A DNA stretch of 64,000 nt, from positions 32,001-96,000 of the forward strand of contig CAWFQB010000006.1 in assembly GCA_963817895.1 (NCBI GenBank), written 5' to 3'. Position numbers and translations under genes: made by a program. This DNA comes from an uncultured Chthonomonadaceae bacterium (GTDB taxonomy: Bacteria; Armatimonadota; Chthonomonadetes; Chthonomonadales; Chthonomonadaceae). Position 1 is the first letter of the stretch. Every line of letters starts with the position of its first letter. Below, piece by piece: positions 10,634 to 22,979 of this stretch. The notes beneath the pieces were generated by a model. That model was not told the origin of the DNA and did no database searches. It was given only the letters and a program-made list of their open reading frames with translations.

Positions 10634-13600
10634 TCAAACTATACTGACCTCATCCTCTGATAAGGCGTAGGCGACAGCCTGCTCCCATGTCAAAGTATAG
10701 CCCTGCTTTAAGGCGGTCGCATACATCTCTTCGCCCAGCGCGCTACAGGCCTGATCTACAAAGTGGACGTATGTTCGGCTCTCATTGGGAGGCAGGGGAA
10801 CGCCAATGCTCTCTTGAAGCGCTACGGCCGCTCCCCAGAGGCGCGCGGCCTTTTTTGGCATAGCGAGCGCCAGCATCACAGCGGCCAGTCCTCTCAGACT
10901 GATGGCGACTCCCGGTCGGTCCACCATTTCCTGGAGGAGAAACAGACTCTCCTCATGCAGCGGCTGAGCAACAATGTAATCGCTTTGCGCGTAAGCCACA
11001 TCGCCCAATCCGCTAAGACAATAAGCGATATAAGATCGATTGCCCAACTTCCGGCTGATACCCAGACTCTCCTCATAGAAGGATTTGGCAGCAGTATGAT
11101 CGCCCTGTGAACTCAGCGCGACACCCAATTTGTAGAGTGAAAAGGCGATACCGTTTTGCTCTCCGAGTTCGCGCCGGATGCCCAGACTCTCCTCAATGAG
11201 TGTCCGCGCCAGAGGATAATCTCCCAGATTAGTCGCTACGTCGCCCAGGTTCGTCAGCGACCAGGCAACCCCATGTATGTATTCCAGCTCTTTGAAGAGC
11301 GCCAGGCTTTCCTCATAGGCGGCCCGCGCGACAGCGTGCTTCCCCTGTTCACCCGCGTTGCTTGCCAGGTTATTGAGGGAGAAAGCGATCCCCCGCTTGT
11401 TGTCGAGACTCCGAAAGATGCGCAGGCTCTCCTGCCCCAGGGTATGCCCTGCTGTGTAATCGCCTTGAGAATCCGCTAATGAGCTGGCTCGTAGCAAGGC
11501 CCATGCCCGCATAGATGTATCTCCCTGAACATTCTCTCGCGCCAATATTCGCTCTAAAAACATCCTGCCTTCGCTGACATCACCGCGTATACTCCAAAAA
11601 TTCCACAGGGCTGTTGCAAGTCGCAATCCGGTTTCTTTGGAGTTCCCTCACAGGGCCGTCCCATTGCAGACTGGCCCGGAGGTTATCGCGCTCTGTTTCG
11701 AACCGCAGCAACGCTGCTTCCTGCTCTCCCCCTTCCAGCTGATTGCGGGCCTCTGCAACCACAGCGATACACCAGTCTCGATGCCTGGCATAAACGGCCT
11801 CCCTTTCACCGCTTGCCTGTAGGAATTCCGCCGCGTACTGTCGCACCATTTCCAATAGATGGTAACGTCCACCTTCTTCTCCCCCCCCGTACCATAAACG
11901 CTATCAGCGACTTATCAATCAAAGAAGTCAGCAGGTCGAGAATCTGCGACGCCTGAACTTCCCCTCCCGCACAAACCTGCTCGACGGCGTCGAGCGTCCA
12001 GCCTCCGGCAAAAACAGATAGGCGGCGCAATAACAGGCGCTCCGATTCGTTCAAAAGAGCATACGACCAATCCAGCGTGGATCGCAGCGTCTGTTGACGC
12101 GACTGCGCCGAGCGGCTGCCACCTGTCAACAAGCCTAATTCATTGTCCAACCGGGCCGCAATCTGTTCCACCGTCAGCGCTTTAACACGCGCGGCGGCCA
12201 GTTCAAGGGCGAGCGGAATCCCTTCCAGGCGAAAGCAGACCTGCGCCACCGACAAGGCATTGCTTCTGGTGAGCGCAAAAGTTTTCTGGACTGATTGCGC
12301 CCGCTCCACAAACAACTGTACGCTTTCATAACCCATCAGCGCCCCAGGCAACGTGGCGTTCGCCTGCGGCAGATGGGCCGGGACGGGCGCGGCCAGCGAA
12401 GGAACGGCCCAGGCTGTTTCACCCGTGATGCCGAGCGCCTCCCGGCTCGTCGCTAAGATATGCGCTCCCGCGCACTCGCGCAAGAGGTACGCTGCTGCCT
12501 CCGCGCTCGCCTCCAGAAGATGCTCACAGTTGTCCAGCACCAACAGCAGCCGCTTCGCGCGCAGAGTTTCCTTCAGGCTTTGCAGTAAACTCCGTCCACT
12601 CTCCTTTAGCCCCAACACGGAGGCGATCTGTTGAGCCACCATCTTGTCCTCTGAGAGCGCCTCCAGCGCCACCAGCCACACGCCATCAGGATACTCGCTT
12701 ACGACCTCTTTCGCGACTTCCATCGCCAGGCGAGTCTTCCCGATGCCTCCCATGCCGGTCAGCGTCACCAGCCTAGACCTTCGCAGGCGTTGCGCCACTT
12801 CCATCCGCTCGTCCTCTCGGCCCACCAGGTCGGTGAGCGCGTGAGGCAGGTAGCCGGTGACACGAGGGACAGACGCCACTTCCGCCTTTACTGACGCAGG
12901 CGTACTGGACTGCTGACGCGCCTCTGTTCGCAAACGCTCATACAGGGCGCGCGTTTTCTCATCGGGAACGGCGGTGGGATCGCTTCTGAGAATAGTCAGA
13001 AATTCGCGGTACACCTGCAAGGCCGCGTTGCGGTCGCCCTGCTTTGCCAGCGCCTCCATCCATCCTCGCCGCGCCGCATCCGACCAGGTATCAAGGCTGG
13101 CGGCGCGCTGAAAGTGACGGAGGGCCGCCGCATAGTCGCCTCCCGCCAAAGCGGACTCTCCAAGTTTTTGCAAAGCCTGCAAGCAACACTGCTCACGGTG
13201 GGCGCGCTCCTGCCCAACCCACTCTTCAGCACAGCCTTCGAGCAGTGGCCCGCCATACAGCGCCACCGCCTGTTCCAGATCGGCAAGGTTCCCACTCTTG
13301 ATGGCGGCATCAAAGCGAAGAATATCCACATCCGCGCCGGAAAGTTCCAGAAGAAGCGTTTGACGGTCCGGCGATTGCAGCCGCGCGCCCTCCTCTCCCA
13401 ACGCCCTGCGCAGTTCGCTCAAGACGGGGCGCAGGTTGGCAAACGCCTGGCTCTGCTCCAGATCGGGCCACAGCGTGGCTGCCAGCCACTCCCGTTCCAC
13501 AGGCCGGTCATGGCGCAGTGTCAGCAAGGCCAGCGCCCACAACGCCTTACGCGAACGAAATGGCGGCAGGGGTAGACCTTGCGCCCTTACCTGCATCGGG

Positions 13601-13647
13601 CCGAACAGAGTTATGGTTAGCGTATCGGCAGTCTCTGGCGAGGACAT
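10634..13647 (-). CDS. AfsR/SARP-like regulator 1: wHTH + BTAD + NB-ARC (STAND) + TPR; frameshifts near 11880 (poly-C) and ~11630
   Basis: LFGPMQV...ALLTL...[41 protein letters not shown]; TPRs in 10634-11626. Confidence 0.9.
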
Positions 13648-13732
13648 AAACGCAATCCTTCCTGCGCAACCTGGACCTGGCAAACAAACTTACTGGGAAG
13701 CAAATGGCTCTCACAGCAATATTTCGGGGGAG

Positions 13733-19252: not shown

Positions 19253-19331
19253 GCAGCAAGCCTTGGTTGCAATCTGCTTTTGGAGCGGTTTCATTGACGG
19301 AATCGTAAGAATTATGAAGGAGGTGAAAATA

Positions 19332-19502
19332 ATGGAGTGGGTACAATTTATCGGGTTCATAGCAGTCTGGATCGTGCTACAGCGTTTTATCCTGCCCAAA
19401 CTTGGCATCACTACTTGAATGGCTCCAGGTGGCTGCGCGGTGGAACCGCGCGAAAAGAAACGCGCAGACAAAACAGAAACCGACGCCGACCAGATACGAT
19501 GA
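19332..19502 (+). CDS. putative small membrane selenoprotein (in-frame TGA at 19416-19418; UxxxxxC)
   Basis: AAGGAGGTG RBS; MEWVQFIGFIAVWIVLQRFILPKLGITT-TGA-MAPGGCAVEPREKKRADKTETDADQIR; hairpin at 19435-19451. Confidence 0.55.
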
Positions 19503-19549: not shown

Positions 19550-22500
19550 TCAGCACCCGGATGCAATCATGAGCATGGCTGAATGAGAGTTTTCTTCCGC
19601 ATCGCCGTCAAACCGCTCGGAACCCCTCTCCGACAAAGCGACTGCAACGGCCTCCTCCCAGGTCAGCGCCCGCCCCTCCTCCCAGCCTCGCGCGAACGCT
19701 TCATCTCCCGCGACAGCGCAGGCGGCTGCCACATCGCGCTCGTATTCTTCTCGCGCGCTGGACGGCAGCGGCGCGCCAATCTGTTCCCGCAACGCCTGTG
19801 CCGCTCCCCACAAGCGGGCCGCTCTTTGCATTTCTACGCCCGCCTCGTTGCTCCCCCCTGCCGTTTCCACCGAAGTTGTAGACGCAAGCGTTTCTACCGC
19901 GATAAGAGCGGCGAAGGCATCCAGAAACGAGAGAATGCCAGGCCGACATTCGATGCTCCGCCAGATTGCGAGGCTCTCTTCGTGGCAAGCGCGGGCGGCA
20001 ACATAGTCAGCCCGTATGCGTTCCCGACACCCCAGATTATGGAGTGAGGCGGCGACAGCAAGGGGTTTTCCGATCACTCGTCGGAGCGCCAGGCTCTCCG
20101 CATGGTAAGCTCGACCGGCAGCATCGTCGCCCCGTTTATAGGCTTCATCCCCCAGTTCATACAGGGTGGCAGCAATACCCGGCCGATCTCCGATCTCTCG
20201 TCGAATCGCCAGGCTCTCATCCAGGTAGACCTGCGGGGCAGCATAGTCGCTCCGGTTCCAGGGCACCCTCCCCAGGTTCGTGAGACTACTGGCTATACCC
20301 GGCAGATCTCCGAGTTCCCGAGAGATTGTCAGGCTCTCATTATAGTAGGCCCGCGCAGCAACAGTGTCGTCCTGATCGCTGGTAACATTTCCCATAGAAT
20401 TGAGGACGGTAGCAATACCCAGCCTATCTCCGAGTTCCCGAGAGATTGTCAGGCTCTCAGCAAAGTAGGCCCACGCAGCAGCATAGTCGCCACGAATATA
20501 TTCCTCTTCCCCCAGGTTATTGAGACAGCTGGCTATACTCTGCCGATCTCCGAGTTCCCGAAAAATTGTCAGGCTCTCATTATAGTAGGCGCGCGCGGCA
20601 ACAGTGTCGCCCTGATCGCTGGTAACATTTGCCAGGCAGTTGAGTGACGCCGCGATACCCATCCGGTTTCCGAGTTCCCGCAGGATTTCCCAGGCACTCT
20701 TCAAGGTAGGCGCGCCCAACCGCATAGTCACCCAGAATGCAGGCCAGCATCCCGGCCCCAATGAGTCCTCTCGTTCGCGCCGCCGTTCGCTCCTGCGCTC
20801 CTTTGGCCTGCAATGCTTTCTCGCACCATGCCCGTCCCTCCGTTAGATACCCGCGCGTATGCCAGAACTCCAGCAACGCGCCGCAGATAAGCAAGGGGAT
20901 GGTGGAATACGGCTGAAATTCATCCTGGTTCCCTCGTCCCTCTTTCTCCTCTTTCAGGCTCCAGTCAAGAGCGGCCCGCAAATTCCCATGCTCACTGTCC
21001 AAACGCGTCAACCACGCCTCCTGCTCCGCCGTTATCAGCGCCTTCTCGGCCTGCTCGGCAAATGTCAAACACCACGCCAGATGCCGGAGTTTTACCTGCT
21101 TTGCCTCCTCTCTCGCTTGCAATTCCTGCGCGGCGTATTGTCGCACCATCTCCAGTAAACGGTAACGCCCATCTGCGTGGCCCCGTTCCTCGAATAAGAC
21201 CAGGGACTTGTCCACCAGAGAGGTCAACAGGTTCTGCATCTGCTTCTCCTCAACACCATCCCCGGCACACACCTGCTCTGCCGCTTCCAGAGTGCAGCCA
21301 CCGGCAAAGACAGACAGCCGCCTCAGCGTTGCCCGCTCCGCTTCACTCAACAGGGCGTAAGACCAGTCCAGCGTAGCCCGCAGCGTTTGCTGACGGCCGG
21401 GAGCTGTGCGGCTCCCGGCCGTCAGCAAACCCAGGTTGTCGTGCAGGCGCGAGGCGATCTGCTCGACGGTCATGGCTCTCGCCCGTGCCGCCGCCAGTTC
21501 AATAGCAAGAGGAATACCCTCCAATTGTTGGCACACCTGCGCTACCATCCGCGCATTGCTGCCCGACAGGGTAAAACTTTTTTGTACCGCCTGTGCGCGC
21601 TCTACGAACAACTGCACACTTTCATAACTCATCAGCACGCGAAGCAGGGTGGTGTTCGCCTGTGGCAGATGGGCTGGATCGGGCACAGCCAGAGCAGGAA
21701 CGGACCAGGCTGTCTCGCCCGTGATCCCCAATGCCTCTCGGCTAGTGGCTAAAATTTTTACCGTCGCGCATTCCCGCAAAAGATGGGCTACAACCTGAGC
21801 GCTCGCTTCCAGCAGATGTTCACAATTGTCCAGTACCAACAGGAGCCGCTTCGGACGCAGATGCTCGGTCACACGCTGCAAAGGAGTTCGGTCCGGCTCT
21901 TCTCTAAGCCCCAACACGGAGGCGACCTGTTGGATCACGAGTCTGCCATCGGAGAGCGTGTCCAGCGCCACCAGCCACGCGCCATCGGCATATTCTCGAA
22001 CGACCTCGCTGGCAACCTCGCGCGCCAACCTGGTTTTGCCGATGCCGCCTGCTCCCGTTAGCGTCACCAGGCGAGAACGTCCCAGCCTCACTGCTATCTC
22101 CTGCCGCTCGTCCTCTCTTCCTACCAGGTCCGTCAAGGGATAGGGAAGATAGCCTAAGACCTTCGGAACCTCTAACACGTCCGCCAAAACAACCGCATGG
22201 GAATGTTTTTGTGTCTGCGCTTCGGCTCTCAAACGCTCATACAGGGCGCGTGTCTGTTCATCGGGAACGGCGGCAGGATCGCTCCTCAGAACCGTGAGGA
22301 ATTCGCGGTACACCTGCAAGGCCGCATTACGGTCGCCCTGCTTCGCCAGCGCTTCCATCCACCCGCGCCGCGCCGCATCCGACCAGGCATCCAGACCGGC
22401 GGCTTTCTGGAAATAAGTGACAGCCTCCGCATAGGTTCCTGCCCTCAGCGCGGCTTCTCCTAACTTCTGCAACGCCTGCAAGCACTGCTGTTCCCGGCTG

Positions 22501-22979
22501 GCGCGTTCCTGCGTCACCCATTCTTCCTGACAGCCTTCCAGCAGCGGCCCGCCATACAGCGTCACCGCCTGTTGCAGATGGGCAAGGTTCCCGCTCTGGC
22601 TGTCCCTCTTAATGGCGGCATCAAACGCGAGGACATCTACTTGCGCGCCGGAAAGTTCCAGCAGAAGCGTTTGACGATCCGGCGATTGCAGCCGCGCCCC
22701 TTCCTCTCCCAATGCTCTGCGCAACTCGCTGAGAACGGGGCGCAGGTTGGCAAACGCCTGGCTCTGCTCCAGTTCCGGCCACAGCGTTGCGGCCAGCCAC
22801 TCGCGTTCCACGGGGCGAGAATGGCGCAGGGTCAGCAGCGCCAGCGCCCACAGCGCCTTACGGGAACGAAAAGGCGGAAGGAGGTTGCCCCCCACCCGCG
22901 CCTGCATCGGCCCGAACAGAGTAATGGTTAACGCTTGAACAGCGGTTTGCGCTTCCGCGCCGATCTCTGACGAGGGCAT
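19550..22979 (-). CDS. AfsR/SARP-like regulator 2: wHTH + BTAD + NB-ARC + 40-aa TPR array; frameshift near 20700
   Basis: Close paralog of regulator 1 at the N-terminus; [28 protein letters not shown] repeats. Confidence 0.9.

Follow-up and report, generated by a model that had tools for sequence, protein, structure and literature searches.

A family of very short membrane proteins with a probable selenocysteine beside a single N-terminal helix in Armatimonadota and other phyla

We identified a 56-codon gene in a 64,000-nucleotide stretch of an uncultured Chthonomonadaceae genome (the whole stretch analysed, hereafter the window), in which a mid-gene TGA almost certainly encodes selenocysteine (Sec, U). 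Its product has one membrane helix, then the motif LP-K-LG-x-x-T-U-M-x4-C and a charged unstructured tail, and it belongs to a widespread family of such very small proteins. The features of the gene, in window coordinates, are as follows.

19317-19325, forward strand: Shine-Dalgarno sequence AAGGAGGTG, read from the sequence, 6 nt 5' of the ATG
19332-19502, forward strand: 56-codon probable selenoprotein gene, with Sec at codon 29 and the true stop TGA at 19500-19502
19335-19400, forward strand: single transmembrane helix (residues 2-23), predicted N-out/C-in from AlphaFold2 and lysine/arginine bias
19392-19415, forward strand: conserved helix-breaking motif L-P-K-L-G-x-x-T, with P and G invariant
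19416-19418, forward strand: in-frame TGA, the probable selenocysteine codon, assigned from the codons at this site across homologs
19434-19436, forward strand: codon of the partner cysteine C35 (U-x5-C here, U-x4-C in most homologs), an invariant column in profile A1
19435-19451, forward strand: putative bSECIS stem-loop of 7 bp plus one flanking U-G pair, with a GGA loop that starts 23 nt past the UGA
19437-19499, forward strand: charged low-complexity tail, unconserved past about 6 residues
19509-19548, no strand assigned: strong hairpin, probably a terminator, between the gene and a convergent STAND/TPR gene, with one copy in the genome

The reading frame runs from the ATG at 19332 through 28 codons to LPKLGITT, passes the TGA and continues for 27 codons (MAPGGC...) to a second TGA. 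When the sequence was re-read, this geometry proved to be as the initial annotation had described it, from the ribosome-binding site and the 28-codon transmembrane peptide to the U-x5-C spacing, and the 7-bp stem with its GGA loop about 23 nt from the TGA was located where it had been placed. The gene had also been called invisible to ORF calling; it is not entirely so, as a 34-aa product that ends at the TGA is already in a database (P0002), and a word-index protein search with the single query matched only this truncated record. The proposed terminator is likewise a strong hairpin (folding z = -4.4), but it has no U-tract on the forward strand and the terminator scan made no call there. Its T-rich side lies on the reverse strand, which fits a terminator of the convergent gene. 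No sigma-70 promoter was called upstream of the gene by the promoter scan.

One line of evidence for read-through comes from the codons found at the site. A DNA pattern that allowed TGA, TGC or TGT there and required the downstream Cys gave at least 120 matches in species genomes; all 120 listed proved to belong to the family and to have a hydrophobic segment, and they carried TGA in 113 cases, TGC in five and TGT in two. Where any codon was allowed, TGA stood at 57 of the 57 sites read (a few of them duplicates or second copies), and neither TAA nor TAG was seen in the loci read, which exclude one weak match with one TAA (G579). Among the carriers in the host phylum, 54 of 55 genomes have the TGA form and one has TGT. 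Eight loci carry a Cys codon (TGC or TGT) within a continuous open reading frame, so the Cys/TGA pairs that had been named in advance as a check on recoding are present at the DNA level.

Conservation also extends past the TGA. Over 165 distinct proteins the next residue is M (75%), L (21%) or V (4%), and it is followed at +5 or +6 by a Cys that is encoded by both TGC (90) and TGT (52; n = 142). In the 47 phylum loci found without the Cys requirement, U and Cys were 4 residues apart in 31 and 5 apart in 12, and a spacing of 4 was also read at 55 of another 57 sites; one homolog (L227) lacks a Cys at the usual position. On a tree built from 41 columns the Cys forms correspond to three changes, and a single origin may also fit.

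Two other readings of the TGA have to be weighed. It could be a plain stop that leaves a 28-aa peptide, perhaps with a relic behind it or a mini-ORF coupled to it through TGA-ATG; alternatively, UGA could be read as Trp or Cys throughout the genome. An ATG does follow the TGA in most copies, but the +1 codon is often CTC, CTG or GTC, and since CTC and GTC are unable to start translation a coupled stop-start is ruled out as a general reading. Of 7971 candidates in the protein database, 2708 matched the family; among the 120 listed of these, every named protein is a 'hypothetical protein', and the residue at the site is C in 115 and W, R or S in five. The C in these records may partly be U rendered as C. 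The lack of TAA and TAG among the 57 sites and the continuous frames of the Cys-codon homologs also speak against a stop.

The hairpin bears on the same question. According to the legend of Fig. 2 in PMC13188914, the bSECIS consensus has a loop of 3-9 nt with an early G, a stem of 4-16 bp, a distance of 16-37 nt from the UGA and an energy of -7.5 kcal/mol or lower. The window hairpin agrees on all four points, with a GGA loop, 7-8 bp, 23 nt and -13.1 kcal/mol. Taken alone it is weak, which had kept the plain-stop reading in play: z was -1.0 to -1.4 in wider cuts, where a competing fold is present, and -1.6 and -2.9 in narrower ones. A filter for motif plus hairpin passed 78 TGA sites in the host genome, nearly all of them spurious. 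Because the single hairpin does not rise above chance in its wider context, the case is carried by comparison across the family. A hairpin whose stem scores at least 5 and whose loop has a G near its beginning was present in 141 of 156 distinct TGA copies versus two of eight Cys copies; after synonymous shuffling it was present in 21 +/- 3.5 of 156 (maximum 34), and at ordinary TGA stops of the host genome in 323 of 2544. Distances between the loop and the Cys codon are 5, 8 or 11 nt, giving three codon-shifted hairpin registers. Paired columns swap bases, for example GC 24, CG 17, AT 7 and TA 2 in one column (n = 54); sorting by best hairpin inflates the paired fractions and not these swaps. 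One Cys copy (L036, genome G094) retains a strong SECIS-like hairpin in a genome where selA was not detected, and possibly represents a recent change from Sec to Cys.

The machinery for Sec insertion follows a similar distribution. The host genome has selA and selD above their cut-offs and a tRNA-Sec, and its selD gene itself contains a UGA and a hairpin. The initial annotation had asked for the whole set, and selB is the part that stands less firmly: its coding sequence, though of full length, is broken into several frames (C14:204959-206888). An unrelated gene on the same contig is split in the same manner (C14:192618-193926), so assembly indels are likely in selB, though unproven; selB was above the family cut-off in all three relatives searched. 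In the host phylum, selA was found in 51 of 54 TGA-form genomes, compared with 218 of all 401; those TGA genomes in which it was not detected are 92%, 72% and 63% complete, and it was not found in the single Cys-form genome. Among 40 genomes of other lineages it was present in 27 of 32 TGA carriers and four of eight Cys carriers; as related genomes are not independent, these comparisons are given without a p-value. The frame-split selB can be set in favour of a plain stop, but both hairpin and selA track the TGA form. Reassignment is opposed by the use of TGA as a normal stop in the host (2544 long ORFs) and by its only tRNA with a TCA anticodon being the tRNA-Sec. We consider a plain stop or a reassigned UGA very improbable.

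Three further tRNA features of the host genome were recorded. At C11:90528-90599 ARAGORN reported a tRNA of 72 nt that has the anticodon CTA and is labelled Pyl; it may be either an amber suppressor or a degenerate array tRNA. Another tRNA, at C1:603139-603212, has the anticodon ACA, and 16 tRNA genes form an array at C4:227906-230044.

Homologs in the host phylum were sought with profile A1, reading through stops, and were found in 55 of 401 genomes. Close to the host the distribution is patchy, with none in the two genomes of its genus and four in the 32 of its family. The gene was present in 71 of 87 genomes of a family centred on Geomobilimonas luticola (Geobacteraceae) and in 99 of 121 genomes of an order centred on a Desulfobacteraceae genome (Desulfobacterales). 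By these counts the selenoprotein family looks near-core in two large anaerobic groups, with scattered members in several further phyla. Carriers include the cultured strains Geomobilimonas luticola JCM 17780 (locus L079) and Pelotalea chapellei DSM 13688 (locus L093). The 80 titled records among the pattern matches listed include Desulfobacterales, Geobacteraceae, Syntrophaceae, Planctomycetota, Acidobacteriota, Chloroflexota, KSB1, Spirochaetes, Armatimonadota and others, and the six titled Cys-form records among them are all from Planctomycetota.

The 165 distinct proteins are 45-85 aa long (median 56), with invariant P(-7) and G(-4) and T(-1) in 99%; in the phylum loci 13-53 residues follow the Sec. 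Tandem duplicates about 225-240 nt apart occur at L222 (G570) and in G643, and a second copy in G364 (L233) is degraded, with stop codons in the helix region. L233 was set aside, as were L055 (weak, no motif), L003-type matches weaker than about E 1e-2 and P0003 (a repeat protein). Plasmid tblastn gave one weak match (E 0.8), a sequence search of the PDB nothing below E 0.79 and Rfam no match at E <= 1; one unnamed cluster in the ESM Atlas, at 0.88, is taken as a lead only.

The gene has the marks of the known bacterial SelB/bSECIS selenoproteins, namely a UGA, a hairpin within the coding region, Cys homologs and co-occurrence with selA. Among the 119 selenoprotein families in Table 1 of the May 2026 inventory PMC13188914, a few rows of which (CDD/PANTHER identifiers) could be compared by name and motif alone, none has U-x4/5-C right after a single N-terminal membrane helix. 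No family in NCBIfam r20 (June 2026), which does contain recent selenoprotein models, or in Pfam was reached by any of 62 members (best E 0.0048), the family was not found in the supplement of BSepDB (PMC13326102), whose Table S2 possibly falls outside the part searched, and no earlier description was found in the literature. It is likely that the family is undescribed, with the reservation that the candidates of Haft and Tolstoy 2025 or Deng et al. 2026 could include it. Its absence from Table 1 of the 2026 catalogue and from NCBIfam r20 is probably due to each half of the gene being shorter than 30 codons, and very short selenoproteins as a class appear to be a blind spot.

AlphaFold2 predicted one helix at residues 2-23 (pLDDT about 90) followed by low-confidence coil. 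Lysine and arginine are commoner on the C-terminal side of the helix in 159 of 165 proteins (means 0.3 vs 4.2), and E, K, P and D are abundant in the tail, which has no conserved sequence. The positive-inside rule is the basis for reading the topology, and this K/R excess accordingly places the U/C pair in the cytoplasm. The protein is thus very likely oriented N-out/C-in, with U29 and C35 predicted to lie just inside the membrane.

We propose a chain of three steps and regard it as a whole as somewhat more probable than not. In the first, which we hold to be nearly certain, SelB would bind the hairpin that lies 16-26 nt beyond the UGA, and insertion of Sec would give the 56-aa product. In the second, held with high confidence, the N-terminal helix would anchor the protein in the orientation just given, followed by the disordered tail. 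In the third, whose chances we put slightly above even, U and C would close reversibly into a small selenylsulfide ring and so scavenge or relay oxidants and sulfane sulfur. The selenolate may attack such species on the inner side of the membrane, or else a disulfide of a partner protein in the membrane; the Cys would resolve the adduct, and thioredoxin-type reductases could reset the pair.

A functional parallel for such a switch is eukaryotic selenoprotein S (SelS). PMC13524514 describes it as a single-pass membrane protein whose Sec and resolving Cys lie in a disordered segment and form a selenylsulfide loop, and which acts as a reductase in vitro. Like SelS (and SelK), the present protein is predicted to cross the membrane once and to carry its Sec in a disordered cytoplasmic segment. 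SelS is 189 aa long, has Cys174 before its C-terminal Sec188 and uses a SECIS in the 3'-UTR, whereas members of this family have 45-85 aa, with Sec 4-5 residues before the Cys and beside the helix. No sequence link to SelS or SelK was found, and there was no Pfam match; the U/C switch would therefore resemble SelS in its working and not by kinship. The 56-residue product is within reach of peptide synthesis and the natural Cys forms would serve as controls, making it testable why Sec is used over Cys in a disordered setting outside the thioredoxin fold.

Two small membrane proteins were considered as relatives and rejected. DUF6132 (PF19628) has a similar-looking C-x-S-G-x-C (a C-x4-C loop) after a helix and is adjacent to the gene in L070, but profile comparison gave a probability of 0.4% and DUF6132 has two helices. 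The anchor of F0F1 ATP synthase subunit b/b' gave a weak match over the helix and LP-x-x-G with six of 62 members (best E 0.0048); this is far below significance, with no coiled coil and no atp neighbours seen.

Small membrane proteins such as AcrZ and CydX are accessory subunits of membrane complexes, and the present protein might be one too, with the U/C pair as a redox switch on its complex. Conserved W/Y, L, Q/M/N, L-P and G along the helix suggest a packing face, and the gene is near-core in two Desulfobacterota groups. No membrane partner is conserved in the neighbourhoods, however, and no longer fused form was found among 8000 candidates scored, which counts weakly against it; an accessory subunit is improbable.

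For the U/C pair we infer a redox or metal-binding role, and the neighbours across the family speak to both. In 167 loci the recurring neighbours were ArsR (15), ECF sigma factors (13), zf-HC2 anti-sigma factors (13), thioredoxin/redoxin (12), FmdB zinc ribbon (10), CoA-disulfide reductase/rhodanese (6), RND efflux (6) and DUF302 (5). A thiol, sulfur or metal-stress gene (ArsR, zinc anti-sigma, thioredoxin/redoxin, DUF302, FmdB, rhodanese/CoA-disulfide reductase, YgaP, CcdA, SQR, YeeE, DsrE, OsmC, CsoR and others) lay within 1 kb in 51 of the 111 loci with 1 kb on either side versus 2.4% of random positions in the host genome, an enrichment that is overstated because the set was picked post hoc and the profiles were built from the same neighbours, and in which the background is one genome and related loci are not independent. 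The remaining 60 loci, the window locus among them, have no such neighbour within 1 kb. According to PMC12423496, ArsR repressors that respond to sulfane sulfur target the sqr, rhd, RND, TauE and YeeE genes. It is not clear that the ArsR proteins encoded next to the family belong to the two-Cys BigR/SqrR type (39.6 bits with the BigR model against a cut-off of 155), and several neighbours look exported, whereas the U/C pair is predicted to be cytoplasmic.

On the metal side, U and C could act as soft ligands for metals or metalloids (Hg, Cu, As(III), Zn), buffering them or handing them over to efflux at the inner membrane face. This is suggested by the ArsR and RND neighbours (15 and six of the 167 loci), by the isolated occurrence of CsoR, of HMA and of an SO_0444-family Cu/Zn exporter, one case each, and by extra Cys residues in some Cys forms. 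Metal-specific transporters are nevertheless a minority and thiol/sulfur enzymes are the commoner neighbours; there are also two conserved ligands only, and the tail is not rich in His or Met. We therefore think a metal ligand role unlikely.

Members of the Geobacteraceae-centred family carry the gene on its own, in surroundings that vary from locus to locus. At 11 of 15 of these loci an AT-rich inverted repeat precedes the gene, in most cases some 30 nt from the start; overall the repeat was found at 15 of 211 genes versus 0.8 in shuffles. In L179-L193 it lies about 25-40 nt upstream and overlaps a likely -10 box, and it may be a repressor site. No upstream motif common to the whole family was found. 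The contexts are best explained, from sequence comparison, if the gene is a portable, stress-regulated unit and not a fixed subunit of one operon.

Among the 30 best-scoring loci of the Desulfobacterales-centred order, an ECF sigma gene is directly downstream in 17 and an anti-sigma gene is present in 16. In 11 such loci the ECF gene starts 34-43 nt past the U of the UGA, inside the tail and just beyond the hairpin, and the same overlap occurs in ten loci of another set (L076, L087, L088, L091, L099, L115, L138, L144, L169 and L173). These ten and L195-L222 share an operon of the small gene, the ECF sigma gene and a Cys-rich zf-HC2 anti-sigma gene, with an overlap of 35-38 nt and probably a TGTAAC promoter. 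The motif TGTAAC-N16-NNTC[AT], which was derived from the ECF-linked group itself, lies upstream of 11 of 211 genes, nine of them ECF-linked, versus 0.14 in shuffles. The ECF16 group (SigF/EcfF/BcrS) is described as oxidant-responsive with a -35 TGTAAC (PMC3420878, PMC8315932), and the -35 and 16-nt spacer are alike here, but the -10 is NNTC[AT] in place of CGAA and the anti-sigma is a soluble zf-HC2 protein in place of DUF1109.

This arrangement suggests that the gene could be a regulatory leader, in which Sec insertion, or SelB on the SECIS, would set translation of the ECF sigma factor and so link a stress regulon to selenium, while the peptide may relay redox state to the zinc anti-sigma. 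A precedent is found in E. coli, where SelB-GTP-Sec-tRNA on a SECIS-like element represses selAB (PMC13449736), and the same anti-sigma family adjoins the gene in Planctomycetota and Acidobacteriota as well. As a general account it fails: the next gene in the window is convergent, and no ECF gene was found in 15 Geobacteraceae-family loci or in 13 of the 30 Desulfobacterales-order loci. The strongly conserved transmembrane helix would also be needless for a pure leader, and the ECF overlap may stem from one inherited event. We judge it decidedly improbable. For the Desulfobacterales gene we raise, as a doubtful possibility, a combined role as a Sec-dependent leader gating the ECF stress regulon by selenium and as a minimal membrane Se/S sensor, analogous to SelS/SelK, that signals redox state to the zinc anti-sigma. 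The conserved overlap with the ECF start offers a testable case of selenium-gated regulation. The SECIS loop as Shine-Dalgarno sequence of the ECF gene was dropped, lying about 15 nt from the ATG, and an ECF-like promoter in the window (19268-19294) was discounted because its loose pattern was written after it had been seen. The best matches to the anti-sigma in the host genome do not, by eye, look like close orthologs. In four Planctomycetota loci (L057, L059, L061 and L072) the Cys form lies between the anti-sigma gene and a conserved gene resembling cytochrome bd subunit I, and in two of these a YgaP-type gene lies in between.

In the window itself, the gene had been taken to close a redox operon, which found no support. 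The genes upstream encode three alpha/beta hydrolases, an SDR, an MBL-fold protein and a XapX-domain protein; the two nearest, MBL and XapX, occur beside no other family member, and one hydrolase recurs once. As MBL and XapX are non-recurrent, there is no conserved redox operon at this locus. The hydrolase-SDR-MBL-XapX cluster is flanked on both sides by BTAD/NB-ARC/TPR regulators on the reverse strand, each split into two ORFs (19550-22979 and 10634-13683).
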